This document shows, one piece after another, positions 10,447 through 64,000 of a stretch of 64,000 nt of DNA. The position numbers and the translations under genes are program-made. Where the stretch lies: assembly GCA_034522495.1 (NCBI GenBank), contig JAXHLG010000002.1, positions 1,000,486-1,064,485 of the forward strand, read 5' to 3'. A model generated the notes under the pieces. That model had not been told where the DNA came from. It searched no databases and was given only the letters and a program-made list of their open reading frames with translations. Numbering within the stretch: position 1 is the stretch's first letter; every line of letters begins with the position of its first letter. The DNA comes from Candidatus Moraniibacteriota bacterium (GTDB lineage: Bacteria > Patescibacteriota > Minisyncoccia > Moranbacterales > DUUL01).

Positions 10447-10470
10447 AAAAAAATTTATTACTGGTTATTG

Positions 10471-10638
10471 AAACCACTGAAGAATGTCACTCTGAACTTG
10501 TTTACCCGGCTTTGACGGGCCGTGTCCGCCTCTGACAGGATTCAGAATCTATAAATTTACAAAAAGGGCTTATCCGTGGAGATCCTGATTTTCATCAGGA
10601 TGACATTTCAAAGGGATTTATGCATTCTTCAGTAGTTT
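10471..10638 (-). repeat. Structured 5'-proximal repeat (family S), copy 1, 24 nt upstream of glmS
   Basis: Terminal inverted repeats are aaaccactgaagaat/attcttcagtagttt. Inside are nested attctga/tcagaat hairpins. Homologous copies lie at 51257-51426 and 52651-52781. Confidence 0.85.
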
Positions 10639-10833
10639 CGATTATTCTTCCGAATTATAACATTTTTTTGGAAAAGTTAATAGAATTGTATTATGAATTT
10701 TGTATCTTGTATCTAGAGTCTAGAATTTTAAATAGCTGGAAATTTTATTCCAGCGAGCGCAGAAGCCGAAATTCCTTCCGCCTCCATATGATTGATAACC
10801 AAAGGAAATATGTTTAAATGTTTGTATGCCTTG

Positions 10834-10863
10834 CCCCGTGTGAGCGAGAGCGAATTTACAGGG
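10834..10863 (+). repeat. Hairpin repeat family C, copy 3
   Basis: The sequence is ccccgtgtgagcgagagcgaatttacaggg, preceded by atgccttg. Confidence 0.8.
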
Positions 10864-10889
10864 TTAAAATGTTAAAATGATTATCGGCC

Positions 10890-10918
10890 TTGACAGATAC
10901 TTTCTTTTGTAGAATAAT
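10890..10918 (+). promoter_or_regulatory. Sigma70-like promoter candidate for the orphan gene at 10966
   Basis: TTGACA (10890-10895) is followed by a 17-nt spacer and AATAAT (10913-10918), with an overlapping TGtAGAAT. A strong SD (aaaggagg) lies 7 nt before the ATG at 10966. Confidence 0.5.
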
Positions 10919-10965
10919 TGGGTAAAAGAATTTTTGAAACAAAAATTGCAAAAGGAGGTAACTTC

Positions 10966-11325
10966 ATGCGATGTTTAAAACTGATCAAAATCGCTGTGGT
11001 TTTTGAAAACACGCTACAAGGGCATTTTTTCAAACAAGCTCTTAAGTCTGAATCAAGGGAAAATAGGCAATGCCAGCCTCTGGTAGTTCTTTTTAAGTTC
11101 AACGAAGCCCCTTGCTTAGATGGAAGCTACGAAGCGGTGGTTCTTGATCAAGAGCCTATCGACGTAGACCCTGAAAAAGCTGACCTTTCTTGTGTCAAAA
11201 ACATTTTTTGGCTAAACGGAAAGGGGGCCGCTGAACCATACCTGTTTCATATCAACAGGTTGAGGAATAAATTTCCTTTTGAGGAGCATATTCAAAAAGC
11301 TGCTAGGAATACTCCTATGCACTAA
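10966..11325 (+). CDS. Hypothetical protein (119 aa), stand-alone transcription unit
   Basis: I placed the start at the internal ATG that is preceded by AAGGAGG. The gene has its own promoter-like motif and a clear intrinsic terminator. I recognised no family. Confidence 0.5.
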   Translation: MRCLKLIKIAVVFENTLQGHFFKQALKSESRENRQCQPLVVLFKFNEAPCLDGSYEAVVLDQEPIDVDPEKADLSCVKNIFWLNGKGAAEPYLFHINRLRNKFPFEEHIQKAARNTPMH

Positions 11326-11341
11326 TTAAGTTCTTCAATAG

Positions 11342-11374
11342 AGGCCGGTCAATGACCGGCCTTAAGCTTTTTTT
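11342..11374 (+). terminator. Rho-independent terminator
   Basis: The 9-bp GC-rich stem aggccggtc-aat-gaccggcct is followed by taagcttttttt. Confidence 0.8.
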
Positions 11375-11478
11375 AGAAACAATTGAACCCGTAATTGAAC
11401 CGCTTGATTTTAAAAATTTCCCGCTGCTTGCCCCTTGCTTCTTGATGCAGCAACACACACTCCCGCCTTGCAGGCCTT

Positions 11479-14400
11479 TCAATCTTCCGCTCCTTTTTTC
11501 CTGAAAACCGTTCCAATAAACCTGTCCACTTCTAAATTGCTGTTCAGCTTCAAATTGTCCGGCTTGGCTTCGATTTCTTCGGGATATTTCCAAAAAAGAT
11601 CAAAGTTGTCCGGCTTTGAAATGGATGAAGAAAATTCAGTCTCGGCTGAGCCGGACTGCTTCTGAGCCAGCAAGGAGTAATAGTCCGTTTTATCCTTGTT
11701 TTTATCCACGTCCACCTTGAAAGGCAATCGGTATTTATAGGTAACTTTGACCTCTTCTTGAGGAGAAACATAGACCCAGTTGCCAAAAACTGTCTTGTTT
11801 TCCGCTCGGTAGATCCTAGTTCCGGTTTCTTGATCGATTTCCATGGATTGCTCCAGTTGCGCCACCTGAGAATCTTTTTGAAATTTAAGCTTCTCATAAT
11901 CCAGGGGAGCGGAATTGAATTCTCTGGTGTGGCCCTGCACATCCAAAAGTTTGCTGCCCTCGGGAACATAAACTCTCATGTAGTTGGCGTTGACTTTATT
12001 GTAAAATTCATACTCGGAGTTGCCGCCGTTGTGTTTTCTGGTGATGGTTACCGTGTCAACAATGGATCCGTCCGGCTTGATTTCAGCATTGTGATCAATT
12101 TTCTGATCTATCACTCCGTCGGTTTTGAATCCGTTGATATTGGAATTAACTACCATCAAATAATCCTTTTTGGTGTCAAGCACTTCCCCGGACCAGCCCA
12201 GCTGGGAAACCAGGTTTTGAATTTCGTGGTTTCTGGAATAAACAAGGATGTGCTTCTGATCCAGCGCTTCGGAAAAAACATTCAAAGTCTCGGCAATGCC
12301 CTCCAAATCCCTTTTGGCAAATACCTTGTCTAGAAGCTTGGGAGCCATATCGGCTATAATTTTTTTAGGCTTGTTCTCTTCTTTGTCATAATCGAATTCC
12401 ACCTTGAACTGGGTTTTATCCACAAAATTTTCCGCCGTGAGAGTGGTATCGTATTCCGGCATCTCTATCGGTCCGGTTATTTCCAAAAGTTTTTTAACCA
12501 CATCCGGAGTAAAAGTTATCACTCCGTCAACCGTGGGGCCTCCGGTTTTCTCGTAGAACCAAGAAATCTTTTCCGCTGAAGTCGGAAAATTGGGAAACCA
12601 GTTGGAGTCGTGAGTGGACCAAGCGGCTGATATTTTTTGAATAGGCTTGGGCGGAATAACATTAACGTCCAGCTGGCCGTCGGGATTGAAAATACCGTCA
12701 ATAAACAGCTCTTCCACGTGGCCTTCATGCACGTCCAAGACTCCGTAACTGCCGATAAAGCCGCCCGTAGCTCTCATCTCTTGGTTGTTTTGAAATAAGA
12801 ATAAGTACTTCCTCGGTCCGTTGTAGCCCAGCAAATCCTTGAAAACAAATTGATTCTTGTTCAATTCTTCAATGTAGGCGATAGCTTGAGGCAGAAATTC
12901 TTTTCCTTTTTTAAATTCGTCTCTGTATCTTTCCGGCACATCCCCGGGGTTCACTTCTTGCAGATTATGATTAGCCTTTTTCAGGTGTTTTCCGGCTTCG
13001 GCCAAGTCTTCATTTATATGGAGAAAAACATCTCCAATGCCTTGCTTGTTCCCTTCTTGCGATTCCAGGGGATTTTCAATTTTGGATATTTTCTCAACCG
13101 TTCCCCCCAGTAAAGAAGCGGCCTCCATAAGTTCTTCCCCAGCATTCATCAGCTTCTTGCCGCTGCCGATCTTGGAAAGGAAAGGAACGTGAGAAAAAGC
13201 CTCCATCATATTGCCCCCCAGCTTATTTATCCTTTGATTGGCTTCTTTTATCTCTTTCTTGGCTTGGTTTAAGTTTAATATGGCTCTGTCGATGTTTTTG
13301 TTTTCAAATTCTTCTTTGGCTTTGGCTATGTGCCGGGACGCTTGCTGTCCTTTTACCTCTACGTCATCTTTTAGCTGAAATCCATAGGAAGCAAAACGGC
13401 CGGAGAGAACAATCAAAAAAATTACCAAACATACGCATCCAAACGAGAAAGCCGGCTTCCAAAAACTTGTTCCGAAAACCCTCCCGGGAGCGGCTGACAA
13501 AGCTTGCCGCATATTTTTCCAAGACGCGGCGACCTGCCGACTCTTCAACTCTTTTTGATTTCTCCGATAAGCTTTTTCCTTCTCCTTTTGCCGCCTGGCT
13601 TCCTCTTTGGCTTCCATCTTCTTGAGTTTCTGCCACTCCTTTTGCTCGGCTTTTCGCTTCTTTTCTTCCTCTTTTTGCCTCTGCAGAGCCAGTTTTTCCT
13701 GCTTCCTCTTTTTTCTTTCCAGCTGCTTCTGTCTTTCTCTTTCTTCTCTTTGGCGCTGTTTTTGAAGCTCTTCTTGCTTTTTTTGGCGCTCTTTCTCCTT
13801 TTCTTGCTCCTGCCTGCGCCTCTGGAGAATCAATTTTTCCTGTTCGCGCTTTTGCTTTTCTTCTTCCTTTTTTCTTTGGATCGCCAGCTCTTCCTGTTCG
13901 CGCTTTTGCTTTTCCCTTTCCTTTTCTCTTTCTTTCAAAAGCCTCCGCCTTTCCATCTCCTTTTGCTCTCGAGCCCTTCTGGCTCTTTCCCATCTCTCTT
14001 CCTCTTCTTTTTCCAGTCGGCGCAATTTCTCTCGATAAAAATGAAGCCTTTCCTCGTTTTTAGCCGCTTGTTTTTGTCCAAAAATATTCAATCCCGGATC
14101 AGTTTGCTTTTGTTCAAACAGGGAAATGATCTCTTTTAAGGATTTCTGCTTGGCGTTTTCTGTGCGTTCAGGGGGAATAATGTGATAAAGAGGCAATTCT
14201 TCCGAAATCTTGCAGCCGAGATAATAATGCCTTGTTTTTTTTATCTCGTTTTTTAAGCTGGCTATTCTTTCCTGTATTTTTTTCTCTTGGCTTTTTCTTT
14301 CAATTTCTCTTAAATTATCTTTCTTTTCAGGCTTGAGGCCTTCGCTTTCTGCCGGTTCTGCCGGACGCGGCCGCCTCTTCGATTCCATTAAACCAGCTTT

Positions 14401-16327: not shown

Positions 16328-16714
16328 CTATTTCTTTTTATTTTGAGTTTTGTCGATAATAGAGCACAAAATATTTTTTATTTCTTTGCCTTCTTGAATC
16401 AGATCTCTCATCCTTTTTTCAAATTCTGGGTTGGCTTCTTGAATTAACTCCAACCAATGAAGAGCTTCCTTGGCTTCTTTTCTGGCAATTCTTAGCCTGT
16501 GAATAAAATCTTTCTTGCCCAATGCATCATTAGCTTCCCTATAATTAGCGCCTATTGAGCCGGCTGAACCTGTTGCTTGACTTTTGAGTCTTTCATTAAT
16601 TGAATTTTTTGGCAGGGCCCTGCAAAGTCTTATGACTCTTTTGGCAAATTCTGTAGTTCTTTCTTCCAAGTCATATTTCGGCTTGTTTTTAGATTCAGCA
16701 TTATTGTCATTCAT
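16328..16714 (-). CDS. Four-helix-bundle protein (family formerly annotated 23S rRNA intervening-sequence protein)
   Basis: The motifs ERTTEFAKRVIRLCRALPKN...GSIGANYREANDALGKKDFIHRLRIARKEAKEALHWLELI are characteristic of that family. Confidence 0.85.
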   Translation of the reverse strand: MNDNNAESKNKPKYDLEERTTEFAKRVIRLCRALPKNSINERLKSQATGSAGSIGANYREANDALGKKDFIHRLRIARKEAKEALHWLELIQEANPEFEKRMRDLIQEGKEIKNILCSIIDKTQNKKK

Positions 16715-20369: not shown

Positions 20370-21436
20370 GTGCCCCTTTTTTAAAAAATTAAGAGCGTTT
20401 CACAAAAATTTCATTGGGGGTTAAATAGTTAAGCGATTTCCTGGGACGGTTATTAAGTCTTTCCTGCACTAACAGTATATCTTTTTCCGTAGCATTCGCA
20501 ATATCTCCCTTCTTGGGAAAATATTGCCTAATAAGTTTGTTAAGATTTTCTACCCCTCCTTTCTGCCAAGAGCAATAAGGATCGCAGAAGTAAGAAGGGA
20601 CATCAAAGTTTTCCAAGGTTTCCAAATGCTTAGCATTTTCTCCTCCGTTGTCTCTGGTCATGCTTTTAACCCAAGATTTAGGGAAGCCCTCTATAGTATC
20701 CGCAATAGAATCCTCATTCTCCATTGCTGATTTGCCCCATACTTTGTGAAGCCGGCAAAGCATTCCCTTTCTTTCATATTTAACCGATAAATTCTCTTTC
20801 TGTTTTCTGCCGAATTCCACCAAGTCTGTTTCCCAGTGCCCATACTCTTTTTTCTTGTCTGCCTCTTTTGGCCTTAAATGAATAGAAACCCTATTTTTCA
20901 GCTTATTTCCTTGCTTTTTGCGAAAATATCTTTTCTGCCTTTGCTTTCTCCCAACTCTTAAATGCCGGTAGAGTTCTTTGTGCTTTTCTGCTCCGTTGTA
21001 GATATAGTCATAGATACTCTCATAGCTAATAGTTTCCATAATCCCCGGAGGCGGTTCCTCTTTTAATCTTCCAGCAATCTGTTCCGGTGACCAATCCCCG
21101 CTAATTTTTTTCTCCACGTATTCTTTCAATTTCCGATTCTTTTCTTTATCCAGTTTTCTCTTGTTAGTATTTTTAGCCCTCCTTTCCATAAAGTACTGGG
21201 CATCTATTGCTCTGTAGGGCAGATGCTCCCCTGAATTTCTTTTAATCTCTCTTTTAATGACAGAATAATCCCTGCCCAATTTTCGAGCTATCCAAGCTTT
21301 CTTTCTTTTTAGCCTCAAAGAAACTTCGATTATTTCTCTTTCATAAAAAGTTATCGGCTGCATATTCACAATTAATTATTAGCTGAAATCTATTGCGAAT
21401 ATACTACTCTTAATCTTGTTTGAGAAAAAGGGGCAC
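20370..21436 (-). mobile_element. IS30-family insertion sequence, apparently intact (1067 bp)
   Basis: The terminal inverted repeats are gtgcccctttttt..attaagag (20370-) and ctcttaat..aaaaaggggcac (-21436). They enclose a single transposase ORF. I saw no obvious target-site duplication. Confidence 0.8.
20389..21369 (-). CDS. IS30-family DDE transposase
   Basis: The N-terminal HTH reads REIIEVSLRLKRKKAWIARKLGRDYSVIKREIKRN. The catalytic region reads GHWETDLV ... MTRDNGGEN ... WQKGGVENLNKLIRQYFPK. Confidence 0.85.
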   Translation of the reverse strand: MNMQPITFYEREIIEVSLRLKRKKAWIARKLGRDYSVIKREIKRNSGEHLPYRAIDAQYFMERRAKNTNKRKLDKEKNRKLKEYVEKKISGDWSPEQIAGRLKEEPPPGIMETISYESIYDYIYNGAEKHKELYRHLRVGRKQRQKRYFRKKQGNKLKNRVSIHLRPKEADKKKEYGHWETDLVEFGRKQKENLSVKYERKGMLCRLHKVWGKSAMENEDSIADTIEGFPKSWVKSMTRDNGGENAKHLETLENFDVPSYFCDPYCSWQKGGVENLNKLIRQYFPKKGDIANATEKDILLVQERLNNRPRKSLNYLTPNEIFVKRS

Positions 21437-48850: not shown

Positions 48851-51199
48851 TCAATTTAACACCGCCTTCACCCTCCTCACGCCTGCGCTGGAGCTTTCTT
48901 CTTTGGCGATCTTGAAAGCGCCTTCGATCTCTCCGGTGTTTGTAACGTGCGGACCTCCGCAGATTTCCTTGGAATACCCTTCAATAGTATAGACTTTCAC
49001 CTTCTCTCCATATTTGTCTTCAAAAGTGCCTTGCGCGCCGGCTTCTTTGGCTTCTTCCAGCCCCATTTCTTCCTCTTTGACATCCACCTTGGCCCGGATT
49101 GCATCATTAACATATTCCTCAATTTCCTGAATCTGCTCCGGAGTCAGTTTGTCCGGATGAGTAAAGTCAAACCTGATTCTTTCTCCATTGATATTAGAAC
49201 CGGCTTGATGCACGTGATCGCCCAACACCTTCCTCATTCCCGATAACAACAAATGAGCCGCCGTGTGAAGCTGCTTGGTTTTTTCTTTAGTGTCGGCCAA
49301 GCCTCCTTTGAACATTCCCGCGCTGGCAGTTCTGGAAAGCTCTTGATGGCTTTTCAATTCCTTCTGAAACTCTTTTTCGTCCACCACCATAGTCTTTTCC
49401 TTGGCAAGCTCTCTAACCATTTCAATGGGAAATCCATAGGTCTGGTAAAGATCAAAGGCTTCCTTGCCGGTAATTTCATTACTCCGCTCTAAATGAGGCG
49501 GAAGAGCTTCATCCTCGATTGTCTTGACTTCATCCGGTTTTCCTTCGGCAAATTTCTGCAGGGCTTTGAAGCGATGAGAAATCTTGTTTTTATCTTCCTT
49601 CATTTCGGAAAAAGTATTCTCGTAACCCTCCGGAACGAAAATCGGGTCAAATCCGAATTCGAGTTTAGAGCTACCCAGCCTTTCTTCCGTTATCCTGCCC
49701 CTTACCTCTCCTTCATAGAAAGACAAATTTCTTCCGTCAAAGTGGGCTATCACGCATTTGGCCACAGCCTTTCTGTTTTTCCCTTCAGTCAAATCCAGCA
49801 GTCCCTGGGTGCTCATATAGTCAATAAACCACTTAATCAAAGCCCCCGGAAATCCGCTCCAGGCTTCCAGATGCAAAGAAGTGTCCTCTACAATGATCGG
49901 CTTTTTGAATTTTTTGTAGGCTTCAATTATCTTGTATTCGGCCACTTCTCGAGGCTCGATAGCTTGAACCTCCGGCAAAGATGATTTGACATAATCCAGC
50001 TCCAACCTGTCTCCGGTCAACTGGCGATATTCCTTTATCTTGTTAGGATTGGTGGAAATTAAAGACACCTTTCCTTTCTTGCCGGCAATTTTTTCAAACT
50101 CCTTTAAGCCTTTTTGCAAAGTTTTCCTGAATTTGGACTCTTCTTTTTCAATAACAGCAAGAATTTTGGATCGATTGACTTCCGGATACTGGTCTTTGTA
50201 GATATAGACCGCTTCCGCGGCCGCTTCTTTGGTAAAGTTTTTTTCCAATCCGAGTTTGTAGCCTTCCCTTATAGCCCTTCTTATCAATCTTCTGAGGATA
50301 TAGCCTCTTTCGCTATTGGAAGGCTCTACTCCGTCCGAGGCAATAAACACGGCAGCTTTCAAGTGATCGGCAATAATCCTGAGGGAAGTATAATAATCAT
50401 AATATTTTTTGTCCGACATTTCTTCCAGTTTTTCAATTATCGGCCAGAAAAGCTCGGTTTTGTAATCATCATTGATTCCGTTGATAACCGAAAGCATTCT
50501 CTCCATTCCCATGCCGGTGTCCACGTTCTGGCTGGGCAGCGTTTGGAAGCTGCCGTCGCGTGTTTTTTCATATTCCATAAAAACATTGTTCCAAATTTCC
50601 ACCCACCTGTCGTCGTTGGGATCGAATTTTTTGGGTAAATCTTCTTCTCTGCCACTCCAATAAAAAATCTCCGAATCCGGTCCGCAAGGTCCGGTTTGAC
50701 TGGGAGGCCCCCACCAATTTTCTTCTTTGTCCAGCTTGGCTATGCGGTCTTGGGAGAAACCCAGGTCCCTCCACGCTTGGAAAGACTCTTTGTCAAAAGG
50801 CGCGTCCGAATCTCCCATAAACACGGAAACTGCCATCTTCTCTTTGTCAAGGCCGAGCCATTGGGGGGAAGTGAGAAATTCATAGCTCCACTTAAGCGAT
50901 TCTTCTTTGAAATAATCTCCCAGGGACCAATTGCCCAGCATTTCAAAAAAAGTATGATGGGTGTCATCGCCCACTTCATCAATGTCGATTGTCCTGATGC
51001 ATTTTTGAACGCTGGCCAGTCGTTTTCCTTCAGGATGCTTTTCTCCCATCAAATAAGGAACCAGGGGCTGCATGCCGGAACTGATGAAAAGCGAGGTGGG
51101 ATCATTCTCGGGCGCCAGGGCTGCCGAAGGCAAAACGGCGTGGCCTCTTTCTTGGAAAAAATTCAAAAACTTCCCTCTTAATTCTTTAGCTGTGATCAT
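48851..51199 (-). CDS. alaS: Alanine--tRNA ligase with inserted ITPA/Ham1-type NTP pyrophosphatase domain; no C-Ala domain
   Basis: The catalytic motifs are FISSGMQPLVPY, QKCIRT and FEMLGNWSLGDYF, followed by the tRNA-recognition domain. The insert spans residues ~377-553 (FGFDPIFVPEGYENTFSEM...ISHRFKAL). The editing domain carries HTAAHLL and CGGPHV. Confidence 0.9.
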   Translation of the reverse strand: MITAKELRGKFLNFFQERGHAVLPSAALAPENDPTSLFISSGMQPLVPYLMGEKHPEGKRLASVQKCIRTIDIDEVGDDTHHTFFEMLGNWSLGDYFKEESLKWSYEFLTSPQWLGLDKEKMAVSVFMGDSDAPFDKESFQAWRDLGFSQDRIAKLDKEENWWGPPSQTGPCGPDSEIFYWSGREEDLPKKFDPNDDRWVEIWNNVFMEYEKTRDGSFQTLPSQNVDTGMGMERMLSVINGINDDYKTELFWPIIEKLEEMSDKKYYDYYTSLRIIADHLKAAVFIASDGVEPSNSERGYILRRLIRRAIREGYKLGLEKNFTKEAAAEAVYIYKDQYPEVNRSKILAVIEKEESKFRKTLQKGLKEFEKIAGKKGKVSLISTNPNKIKEYRQLTGDRLELDYVKSSLPEVQAIEPREVAEYKIIEAYKKFKKPIIVEDTSLHLEAWSGFPGALIKWFIDYMSTQGLLDLTEGKNRKAVAKCVIAHFDGRNLSFYEGEVRGRITEERLGSSKLEFGFDPIFVPEGYENTFSEMKEDKNKISHRFKALQKFAEGKPDEVKTIEDEALPPHLERSNEITGKEAFDLYQTYGFPIEMVRELAKEKTMVVDEKEFQKELKSHQELSRTASAGMFKGGLADTKEKTKQLHTAAHLLLSGMRKVLGDHVHQAGSNINGERIRFDFTHPDKLTPEQIQEIEEYVNDAIRAKVDVKEEEMGLEEAKEAGAQGTFEDKYGEKVKVYTIEGYSKEICGGPHVTNTGEIEGAFKIAKEESSSAGVRRVKAVLN

Positions 51200-51256: not shown

Positions 51257-51426
51257 GAAACCACTGAAAAATGTCATTCTGAACTTGTTTATCCGGCTTT
51301 GACGGGCCGTGTCCGCCTTTGGCGGGATTCAGAATCTAATGATTACCGAAAAAGGCTTTGTAAAAAGATTCTGATTTTCATCAGAATGACAAAATTTTCA
51401 AAATAATCAATTCTTCAGTGGTTTCC
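51257..51426 (-). repeat. Structured 5'-proximal repeat (family S), copy 2, 57 nt upstream of alaS
   Basis: The ends are gaaaccactgaaaaat ... attcttcagtggtttcc. This 170-nt copy contains the 39-nt GC-rich module that copy 3 lacks. Confidence 0.85.
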
Positions 51427-51548
51427 TTATCGTTAATTTCATCATAAACCGAAACGCTCTAAAATTCAAGCCCAAATTCGCAGCTTCTTTTGTTTGTTGG
51501 AGATGCGCGGCATCATTTGTTGAAAATGGCCTGTTAGTTAAAATGGCC

Positions 51549-52650: not shown

Positions 52651-52781
52651 GAAACCACTGAAGAATTGATTATTTTGAAAATTTTGTCATTCTGATGAAA
52701 ATCAGAATCCCTTTACAAAGCCTTTTTTGGTAATTATTAGATTCTGAATCAAGTTCAGAATGACATTCTTCAGCGGTTTCC
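52651..52781 (+). repeat. Structured 5'-proximal repeat (family S), copy 3 (131 nt, lacks the 39-nt module), 11 nt upstream of the downstream start
   Basis: The ends are gaaaccactgaagaat ... attcttcagcggtttc. It is in reverse orientation to copies 1 and 2 on the plus strand. It therefore has the same orientation as they do relative to the downstream gene. Confidence 0.85.
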
Positions 52782-52792
52782 GAAGTATTTTT

Positions 52793-53149
52793 ATGAAAAA
52801 ACTGCCGGCAAAAGCGTTCTTTCATGTCCTGATCAACGCGCTGGCCATTTATGCCGCCGTCCGGTTCATTGACGGCATAACTATGGAAATAACGCTGACA
52901 AACCTTTTACTGGCCGGCGCTTTGCTGGGCCTGGTAAACGTTTTGCTCAGACCGATTCTGGTTTTGTTCTCCCTGCCTTTTATCATATTGACTTTTGGCC
53001 TGTTTACTGTAATCATAAACATCAGTTTACTATTTTTGGTTTCTTTTCTGTTTCCCTCATTTGCCATTGAAGGCTTTTGGGCGGCGCTGTGGGGAGTAAT
53101 CGTTATCAGCTTGGTCAATTATTTATTATCTTACTTAATAGAAAATTAA
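52793..53149 (+). CDS. Phage-holin-family-4-like (YvlD-type) small membrane protein
   Basis: The protein reads MKKLPAKAFFHVLINALAIYAAVRFIDGI ... LLRPILVLFSLPFIILTFGLF. I moved the start to ATG 52793 because the track start at 52760 lies inside the repeat. Confidence 0.65.
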   Translation: MKKLPAKAFFHVLINALAIYAAVRFIDGITMEITLTNLLLAGALLGLVNVLLRPILVLFSLPFIILTFGLFTVIINISLLFLVSFLFPSFAIEGFWAALWGVIVISLVNYLLSYLIEN

Positions 53150-56985: not shown

Positions 56986-58752
56986 ATGACACAAGAAAAA
57001 ACCAAGACCGGGCAAGAACCCCGGCAAAAGAAGGCCGTGAATAAGAATTCCGGCAATCAAGGCCATGACGGGCCCGTGAATAAGAAAGATAAGTTGCGGA
57101 TTATCCCTCTCGGCGGGCTAGAAGAAATTGGCCGCAATATGACCGTATTTGAATACGGCGATGATATTATTATCGTTGATTGCGGGCTAATGTTTCCGGA
57201 AGAGAAAATGATGGGAATCGACTACATTATTCCCAATATTAAATATCTGAAGAACAAGAAAAAGAAAATTCGCGGAGTAATTATCACCCACGGCCACTTC
57301 GACCACATCGGCGGATTGCCGCAAATCATTCCCGAACTGGGAAATCCGCCCGTTTATGCCACTGATTTAACCAGGGGAATCATTATGAAAAGACAAGAGG
57401 ACTATAAAGACCAAGCCCCCTTGAATATCAAGAGGGTAAGAAAGATAGATAAATTAAGATTGGGATCCTTCGGGGTGGATTTCTTTCATGTAAACCATTC
57501 TATTCCGGACGCGGTAGGCCTCTTGATCCGCACGCCGGTGGGAAATATCATGCATACCGGCGACTTCAAGTTTGATCACTCTCCCGTGGGCGATGTTCCG
57601 GCCGATATTTCCAAGATAGCCCGCTTGGGATCGGAGGGAGTTTTGGCCTTAATGTCCGATAGCACCGACTCCCAGACAAAAGGATACAGCATTTCCGAAT
57701 CCAAGATTAAAGAAAATTTAGAAAATATTTTTAAAGAATCCCGCGGCAGAGTTATCGCCGCTACTTTTTCCTCCCTGGTCAGCCGTATCCAAGAAATCAT
57801 TGAAGTGGCCGAAAAGAATGGAAGGAAGGTGGCCATCGAAGGCTACTCCATGAAAAACATTGTGGAAATTGCCAAACAACTGGGATACATCAACGCAAAA
57901 AAATCCACCTTTATCGACGTCAAAGAAATAGACAGATACCCCGACAGCAAGGTGGCAATTTTATGCACCGGGGCCCAAGGAGAAAGCAACGCCGTCCTGA
58001 TGAGGATTATTAACAATGAACACAAACACATTCAAGTTCATTACGGCGATACTATAATCTTTTCCTCCTCGGTTATCCCCGGAAATGAAAGAACGGTTCA
58101 AGGTTTGAAAGACACTCTTTATAAAAAAGGGGCCCACGTCATCCATTACAAAATGATGGACATTCATTCCGGAGGCCACGCCAGGCAGGAAGATTTGAAA
58201 ATGATGATCAACTTGGTGCGCCCGAAATACCTGATACCCATTCACGGAACCTACTACATGCTGAAAATCCACGGGCAATTGGGCGAGGAAGTGGGATTGA
58301 AAAAAGAAAATGTCCTAGTGGGAGAAAACGGCAGAGTAATAGAGTTCGACAAAAAACAGCAAGGCAGGCTAACCAACGAGAAAGTTCCTTGCTCCTATGT
58401 AATGCTCGACGGCCTCGGCATAGGCGACGTAGGCAACGTGGTACTTAGAGACCGGCAATTATTGGCTGAGGATGGCATGTTTACCATTATTTCCATTGTG
58501 GATAAAGAAAAGAGAAGGGTAATAGGCGAGCCGCAAGTGGCTTCCCGAGGATTCATTTACGTTAAAGAAAATTTCGAACTGGTAAATGAAACCAAAAGCA
58601 AAGCCAAAAAAATAATCAATAACATTATTTCCAAAGAAGCTGAACCCAATTGGGACTACATCAAAAACAACATTCGCGACACAGTCGGCCAATTCCTATT
58701 CCAAAAAACCCAGAGAAGGCCCATGGTGCTGCCTGTTATTATTGAGGTGTAA
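56986..58752 (+). CDS. rnj: Ribonuclease J
   Basis: The metallo-beta-lactamase motif is THGHFDHIGG, and a beta-CASP region is present. The segment HSGGHARQEDL and the 588-aa length also fit. Confidence 0.92.
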   Translation: MTQEKTKTGQEPRQKKAVNKNSGNQGHDGPVNKKDKLRIIPLGGLEEIGRNMTVFEYGDDIIIVDCGLMFPEEKMMGIDYIIPNIKYLKNKKKKIRGVIITHGHFDHIGGLPQIIPELGNPPVYATDLTRGIIMKRQEDYKDQAPLNIKRVRKIDKLRLGSFGVDFFHVNHSIPDAVGLLIRTPVGNIMHTGDFKFDHSPVGDVPADISKIARLGSEGVLALMSDSTDSQTKGYSISESKIKENLENIFKESRGRVIAATFSSLVSRIQEIIEVAEKNGRKVAIEGYSMKNIVEIAKQLGYINAKKSTFIDVKEIDRYPDSKVAILCTGAQGESNAVLMRIINNEHKHIQVHYGDTIIFSSSVIPGNERTVQGLKDTLYKKGAHVIHYKMMDIHSGGHARQEDLKMMINLVRPKYLIPIHGTYYMLKIHGQLGEEVGLKKENVLVGENGRVIEFDKKQQGRLTNEKVPCSYVMLDGLGIGDVGNVVLRDRQLLAEDGMFTIISIVDKEKRRVIGEPQVASRGFIYVKENFELVNETKSKAKKIINNIISKEAEPNWDYIKNNIRDTVGQFLFQKTQRRPMVLPVIIEV

Positions 58753-63736: not shown

Positions 63737-64000
63737 TTACAATCCCTCCGGATCCCTTGGATCGCCATAAATTCTAATATAGTTCTCTGAATCAAACACG
63801 TTGGTTTCCGTTTCTATTTCCACCCTGGAAACCTCGGAAAGGTAGTGGCTGTTTGGAAAAACCATAATGTAATCCCTTCTCTCACCGGCTCTTACCGTAT
63901 TCATAATTTGATAATTAGTTGCCAGCAAATCCCCCTTCTCGTCTCTCAATAAAGACTTTACCTTTATTTCTTCAAAATCCACATCGCTTTTGTTGATCAA
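63737..64000 (-). CDS. Hypothetical protein, C-terminal 87 aa; gene continues past window end
   Basis: The frame is open to the window edge (...DVDFEEIKVKSLLRDEKGDLLATNYQIMNTVRAGERRDYIMVFPN...). I recognised no family. Confidence 0.35.
   Translation of the reverse strand: MINKSDVDFEEIKVKSLLRDEKGDLLATNYQIMNTVRAGERRDYIMVFPNSHYLSEVSRVEIETETNVFDSENYIRIYGDPRDPEGL

Follow-up and report, generated by a model that had tools for sequence, protein, structure and literature searches.

A repeat of 130–170 bp occurs in three copies in the 64-kb window (i.e., the whole stretch of Moranbacteria DNA that was analysed), as confirmed by reading each site in gene sense and aligning the three. These copies most probably represent a small non-coding mobile DNA repeat, a MITE-like composite built around a REP dimer of the CGTC type, which lies in the leaders of three genes, and not a dedicated regulatory RNA. 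An earlier note on this DNA had reported three such copies; they are found essentially where it had placed them, 23, 57 and 12 nt from the respective start codons. The copies and their parts are as follows.

Copy 1: 10470–10639, minus strand; 170 bp, the ATG of glmS 23 nt downstream; its first hairpin is ATCCTGAT-GAAA-ATCAGGAT and its second hairpin carries a 39-nt insert.
Copy 2: 51257–51425, minus strand; 169 bp, the ATG of alaS 57 nt downstream; in the divergent rpsO/alaS intergenic region.
Copy 3: 52651–52780, plus strand; 130 bp, without the insert; 98 nt past an NYN-domain gene and 12 nt before 52793, the probable ATG of a Phage_holin_4_2-family gene.
REP unit 1 of copy 3: 52685–52708, plus strand; tag TGTC, 8-bp stem ATTCTGAT, loop GAAA, ATCAGAAT; assigned to the CGTC-1 type.
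Equivalents of REP unit 1: 51368–51391, minus strand, in copy 2, and 10582–10605, minus strand, in copy 1.
REP unit 2 of copy 3: 52741–52765, minus strand; inverted with respect to unit 1; tag TGTC, stem ATTCTGAA, 5-nt loop CTTGA, TTCAGAAT; assigned as CGTC-2-like.
GC-rich insert of 39 nt: 51286–51324, minus strand; within the REP unit 2 loop; present in copies 1 and 2, absent from copy 3.

The composite is bounded by a 16-bp terminal inverted repeat (GAAACCACTGAAGAAT / ATTCTTCAGTGGTTTC) with no or one mismatch per copy. At three mismatches or fewer, GAAACCACTGAAGAAT matches six sites in the window vs. 0.87 expected by chance, and the 25-nt core TGTCATTCTGATGAAAATCAGAATC matches three vs. none expected. 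A 5′ spacer of 19 nt separates the outer inverted repeat from the REP heterodimer, in which TGTC and the hairpin ATTCTGAT-GAAA-ATCAGAAT are followed by a spacer of 32 nt and the inverted partner, ATTCTGAA-TCAAG-TTCAGAAT, with GACA at its end. The insert of copy 1 is located at 10499–10537, in the loop of hairpin 2, where copy 3 has none; on the opposite strand, the 39-nt insert reads as a GTC-tagged mini-hairpin, GTCCGCCTTTGGCGG. It is also found clustered, in three occurrences, on a Saccharibacteria contig (L003; 60–180, 369–383 and 639–653). The GAAA-loop hairpin, the second hairpin and the 11-bp long-range alternative pairing that the earlier note had described are all present. In copy 1, both the compensatory T-A to C-G exchange in the first hairpin and the lone T-G in the second are confirmed. 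There is no ORF inside the element. Contigs assembled from short reads of the same organism (L001, L143 and L144) break off within it, as is expected of a dispersed repeat.

The interior of the element corresponds to the “CGTC-tagged REPs” defined by Di Nocera, De Gregorio and Rocco (2013, BMC Genomics 14:522; PMC3733652). In that paper, the unit consists of an unpaired tag, CGTC, often TGTC (also CCTC), a stem of 8–9 bp that almost always starts A-T, T-A, a loop of 4 nt in family 1 and of 5 nt in families 2–4, and a 3-nt unpaired tail, mostly CCA. Most units form inverted dimers (heterodimers are frequent), with spacers of 20–100 bp whose ends may be complementary. The authors report them from five phyla, identify them with dRS3 of Neisseria and RPE-4/-6 of Rickettsia, name no dedicated transposase and, in Halothiobacillus neapolitanus, place every CGTC-1 dimer inside a 41-bp outer palindrome (PMC3733652).

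In the window, TGTC precedes both REP units in 3/3 copies. The two stems (ATTCTGAT/ATCAGAAT and ATTCTGAA/TTCAGAAT) measure 8 bp without a mismatch, and the loops are 4 nt (GAAA) and 5 nt (CTTGA), the second being enlarged by the 39-nt insert in copies 1 and 2. The tags face outward around the 32-nt spacer, and the units differ in loop and stem position 8. The tails (CCC, CTT and CTC in unit 1; CTA in unit 2) fit the consensus CCA only in the first C; many members elsewhere have CCA...TGG. Since the tag, stem, loop and dimer arrangement agree with the description, the core can be filed as a heterodimer of a CGTC-1 and a CGTC-2-like REP nested in an outer palindrome. Peptides given for Rickettsia CGTC-1 dimers (SFLRKQES ... 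DSRFRGND; PMC3733652) back-translate by hand to GTCATTCCTGCGAAAGCAGGAATC, which is the design of the first hairpin in the window.

Like the CGTC REPs, the element is intergenic and multi-copy, has no linked transposase and shows the outer-palindrome nesting of Halothiobacillus neapolitanus. It differs from them in its host, a member of Patescibacteria, outside the five phyla reported; in the target duplications of 6–7 bp, one for each copy of the composite; and in its sites, which are 5′ UTRs or divergent regions and not gene 3′ ends. CGTC REPs are found preferentially close to 3′ ends, in gaps flanked by ORFs that are unidirectional or convergent (PMC3733652). The window copies do not follow this preference, which is a tendency of the family and does not define it.

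In a scan of one genome per species, the 22-nt first hairpin, TCATNCTGATGAAAATCAGNAT, was found verbatim in at least 105 listed loci from about 10 phyla, usually in several copies per genome. The matches listed include Patescibacteria (Shapiro-, Nomura-, Kuenen- and Saccharibacteria, WWE3 and Gracilibacteria), Alpha- and Gammaproteobacteria, Bdellovibrionales, Chloroflexota, Bacteroidota and Ignavibacteria, as well as Elusimicrobia, Fibrobacter, Spirochaetes and Melainabacteria. The shared design begins with (C/T)GTC and the hairpin AT-N-CTGAT GAAA ATCAG-N'-AT, and continues with a spacer with pairing ends (often CCA...TGG), a second hairpin, ATYC...GRAT, and GAC(A/G). The base preceding GTC is T or C in 115 of 125 family matches. 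Amongst 2.9 million viral contigs, the first hairpin has a single match, and a plasmid collection yielded no real match. In metagenomes, the outer repeat combined with the core gave no matches in its exact form; a looser scan recovered related composites carrying other outer palindromes. Literature searches by sequence strings and by peptides of spurious translation did not find the element.

The arrangement of the units varies between lineages. Some (Dehalococcoidia) have single hairpins, and Vibrio breoganii (L083, 148–830) carries the REP dimers head to tail in tandem, repeated about every 131 nt. In Pseudoalteromonas umbrosa (L017, 5941–6765), three units directly adjoin a CRISPR array of 40 repeats, and in a Sphingobium MAG (L082, ~2340–2440), the spacer of one REP dimer contains an expanded (CT)n microsatellite of some 40 nt.

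The flanks of the window copies carry the mark of insertion. Copy 3 is bordered by a perfect 6-bp target-site duplication (CGAAGT/CGAAGT, 6/6), copy 2 by the direct repeat GATAAG/GATGAG (5/6) and copy 1 by AATAATC/AATAACC (6/7); by random sampling of the window, the chance for the two best alone is about 2 × 10⁻⁵. The flanks of bare REP dimers in other genomes, inspected by eye, show no target duplication, nor does a metagenome composite similar to the element (L135), so the duplication mechanism rests on the three copies.

The element is absent from 48.6 kb of sequence of the closest relatives (75–79% protein identity). When exact empty sites were sought at this distance, only the promoter architecture upstream of alaS could be aligned. 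In the relatives, glmS has different neighbours: upstream of the window glmS, synteny is broken (10640–11479), and a gene for a 273-aa protein directly precedes glmS in the relatives. Its homologue in the window is at 63752–64000, i.e., at the window edge some 53 kb away, which places copy 1 at a synteny breakpoint. The MITE reading that the earlier note had offered as an alternative is thus borne out by terminal inverted repeats, target-site duplications for each copy, the lack of an ORF and the absence from the closest relatives.

The genes downstream of the copies were identified by Pfam and NCBIfam scans as glmS, alaS and a Phage_holin_4_2-family gene; rpsO is divergent to alaS, and the NYN-domain gene is upstream of the holin-like gene. 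The best homologues come from Candidatus Moranbacteria / Moraniibacteriota, which assigns the window to Patescibacteria. The alaS promoter, TTGAAT-17-TATGAT, is located at 51469–51441, and copy 2 lies 15 nt downstream of its -10 box. The two closest relatives (L145 and L146; AlaRS 78% and 75% identical) share this -35/-10 block, GCTTGAAWTT...GTTTATNAT; their alaS leader is about 77 nt long and lacks the element. With the alaS promoter conserved in element-free relatives, copy 2 is an insertion and supplies no promoter. The element should be transcribed from about 5–9 nt after the transcription start. Copy 1 is preceded, at a distance of 14 nt, by the end of a perfect extended -10 box (TGTTATAAT), and copy 3, at about 12 nt, by a weaker -10-like box. 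With a promoter-like -10 box 12–15 nt upstream of every copy, all three are very probably transcribed as 5′ leaders, and to this extent the transcribed leader proposed in the earlier note stands.

The three sites comprise one unidirectional (copy 3) and two divergent contexts, all near gene starts; copy 1 is probably also between divergent genes, an unannotated 135-aa plus-strand ORF and glmS. The spacing of 12–15 nt to a -10-like box in all three copies and the divergent context of two sites out of three are unusual for the family (9/81 divergent). This could reflect either selection or a target preference.

Some features of the neighbouring genes deserve mention in their own right. The alaS gene of the window (48851–51199, minus strand) specifies a 782-aa product with a complete Ham1p_like (ITPase/RdgB) domain (aa 380–552), which interrupts the AlaRS catalytic core, lying between its two parts. 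This AlaRS-Ham1 fusion is common to a small Moranbacteria clade (P0001–P0017), where the NCBI annotation reads “non-canonical purine NTP pyrophosphatase”. At copy 3, the element end GAATGAC creates an ATG that is in frame with the holin-family gene and precedes its probable start by 33 nt (52760–52795), by which mechanical ORF calling stretches that gene into the repeat. A gene for a 23S rRNA-intervening-sequence protein (PF05635) is located at 16328–16714 (minus strand), within a glycosyltransferase / DUF4012 cluster.

The earlier note had all copies in the same polarity with respect to the downstream gene. This is so for the three (3/3 in sense), but copy 2, and probably copy 1, sit between divergent genes, where any orientation faces some gene; the 3/3 is therefore not significant, and the polarity argument comes down to one informative copy and proximity. 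Across the family, units between co-directional genes number 24 in sense vs. 31 in antisense, i.e., their orientation is random, which does not support the idea that the element is selected or tolerated in one polarity only. These counts stem from crude ORF calls around 125 matches and cover 81 contexts (55 unidirectional, 17 convergent and 9 divergent); orientation and covariation alike were judged by pattern scans and pair counting. In an ABC-transporter operon of Dehalococcoidia, units lie antisense in successive gaps between ordinary genes.

The predicted RNA folds are very stable: -43.7 kcal/mol for copy 3, -62.4 for copy 2 and -57.1 for copy 1 (z = -6.6, -8.2 and -5.6, respectively, vs. 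shuffled sequence). The tags can pair (GTC with GAC), and so can the two ends of the spacer; a single strand may therefore fold into a four-helix junction without gaps or, through branch migration, into a single long rod. In an alignment of 24 elements from different genomes, 94.8% of the cells of the four-helix structure are paired; double-sided changes number 78 vs. 27.7 expected, with none of 500 shuffles as high, and the signal collapses once the partners are slid. One-sided (G-U) changes are almost absent from this alignment. The excess of double-sided changes implies that the four-helix fold is maintained. The stem positions of REP unit 2 covary across genomes, positions 1–2 being invariant in the 24.

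The covariation is not specific to RNA, as the earlier note had taken it to be: in 44 elements, G-U pairs (14) are no commoner than A-C mismatches (18), and one-sided changes hardly occur. Sense and antisense RNAs are about equally stable overall. Of the imperfect pairs in the window copies, 3/4 are G-U on the sense strand. With no excess of G-U, random orientation and sense and antisense folds alike, the element behaves as a DNA-level palindromic repeat and not as a strand-specific RNA. Random orientation, together with covariation that goes no further than DNA-level symmetry, is the very outcome that the earlier note had named as speaking against its proposal, and this is what the family displays. 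In Rfam, no family matched at gathering thresholds (window and 15 related loci) or, for copy 2, at E up to 10, where C/D-box snoRNA noise alone appeared, attributable to UGAUGA/CUGA in the element. Readings of CUGAUGA...GAAA as a hammerhead, twister-sister, k-turn or tRNA-like motif were rejected on inspection, as the element lacks a stem II and a conserved unpaired core and has no match in Rfam.

These results make it unlikely that the copies are a selected cis-regulatory 5′ leader RNA, acting in processing, stability or translation by a cloverleaf/rod switch and kept only in sense upstream of genes. Copy 3 does have two folds close in energy, a long rod (-43.7 kcal/mol) and a two-hairpin cloverleaf (-38.9 kcal/mol), and in copies 1 and 2 the gene-sense RNA is 5–7 kcal/mol more stable than the antisense RNA, but copy 3 shows the reverse, with antisense ahead of sense. 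The location of all three copies in sense, 12–57 nt from the start codon and about 5–9 nt after the predicted transcription start, is what such a leader would require; it is set against a family-wide random orientation and a polarity that is uninformative at 2/3 sites. The functions of the three genes are unrelated, relatives have the same alaS promoter without the element, there is no G-U vs. A-C asymmetry, one-sided changes are almost absent, and none of the marks of a structured cis-regulatory RNA (strand-specific conservation, fixed orientation, an Rfam model) was found. Di Nocera and co-workers do suggest that many REPs act as RNA (PMC3733652). The rejection of a metabolite riboswitch in the earlier note holds: the element is neither ligand-sensing nor promoter-supplying, and any RNA effect would be incidental.

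Another reading is that the element functions as DNA, to the benefit of the host or of some other mobile element: the copies might be cruciform or Holliday-junction-like sites of recombination or integration, or bind gyrase or IHF. Neisseria dRS3 units are phage attachment sites, and E. coli REPs bind gyrase or IHF. The gap-free four-way junction, kept across phyla by strictly Watson-Crick double changes, the position of copy 1 exactly at the synteny breakpoint upstream of glmS and the presence of RuvB amongst the window genes are compatible with such a role, as is the membership of dRS3 in the CGTC family (PMC3733652). However, none of the copies has a neighbouring integrase or recombinase, the copies do not enclose foreign DNA, the matches amount to one in viral contigs and none on plasmids, and the target duplication at each copy points to insertion of the element itself, so that we regard a DNA-level role of this kind as quite improbable. 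The mobile promoter module of the earlier note, which would deliver its own promoter to the downstream gene, is hardly credible: the internal sigma-70-like match (TTGAAA-16-GAAAAT, which copies 2 and 3 have in their 5′ spacer) is weak (9/12; regional matches 3 vs. 3.3 in shuffles), copy 1 differs in that spacer, and stronger promoters immediately precede the element, the one of alaS being conserved in element-free relatives.

Amongst known mobile repeats, the element is comparable to REPINs, which are mobilised by RAYT/TnpA-REP: both consist of two inverted palindromic REPs plus a spacer (~100 nt), are non-autonomous and dispersed, and can fold as one long hairpin or two small ones. The element differs in its tag, TGTC vs. 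GTAG or GTGG in REPINs. Transposition of REPINs by RAYT (an HUH enzyme) is not expected to leave target duplications, and REPIN-RAYT systems have been described mainly in Gammaproteobacteria. None of the 45 window ORFs scanned (64 kb of the ~1.3 Mb genome) matches Y1_Tnp/RAYT in Pfam or NCBIfam. With co-transcribed MITEs (Neisseria Correia/NEMIS, ERIC and RUP), it shares a size of 100–200 bp, terminal inverted repeats, target-site duplication, insertion beside genes and stable RNA hairpins in transcripts; unlike in those, the interior is a REP dimer, not a deleted IS, and there is no sequence relationship.

Of the hallmarks of a MITE, the element has terminal inverted repeats and copy-specific target-site duplications; a cognate autonomous IS with matching ends was not found in the 64-kb window, and we know of no IS with such ends. 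The only transposase gene in the 64 kb is of the IS30 family, with ends unrelated to those of the element. Its ORF (20389–21369; NCBIfam, 235 bits) lies in a segment at 20370–21436 (minus strand) with a perfect 12-bp inverted repeat, GTGCCCCTTTTT. In other genomes, a search between paired matches for a transposase flanked by the element returned only housekeeping genes.

We propose that the composite is a non-autonomous mobile DNA element, a unit that would have been copied within the Moranbacteria genome, each insertion leaving its own 6–7 bp target duplication, as seen at the three copies. Movement would be in trans, by a transposase making staggered cuts; a candidate enzyme with matching ends is absent from the window. 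All three copies sit a few nt past the point where transcription of glmS, alaS and the holin-family gene likely starts, and from this position they would be transcribed as very stable 5′-terminal structures (-44 to -62 kcal/mol). Any effect on expression would be a by-product, most plausibly a shielding of the transcript's 5′ terminus against RNase J, whose gene the window carries at 56986–58752; alternatively, the transcribed element may attract cleavage by a double-strand RNase. To our knowledge, no mobilising enzyme for CGTC-type REP dimers has emerged since 2013. For the family as a whole, it is conceivable, though rather doubtful, that CGTC REP dimers move as cargo of a palindromic carrier, by staggered-cut transposition with 6–7 bp duplications and preferentially just downstream of promoters, and that the verbatim 22-nt GAAA hairpin across some 10 phyla reflects recognition by one widespread protein and not repeated independent origin.

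The element is of a known repeat kind; what is new here is the host (Moranbacteria, Patescibacteria) and the target duplications, which go beyond the original description (PMC3733652). A false lead is thereby removed, as the element is no new riboswitch or leader family, and it flags a source of assembly breaks and spurious small ORFs in metagenome-assembled genomes. The CGTC REPs, a poorly understood superfamily, are extended to Patescibacteria and several other phyla. Their mode of movement was left open by the original authors (PMC3733652), and with three copies, each bearing a target duplication, this ~1.3 Mb genome offers a small, clean case that could help to find how CGTC repeats move.
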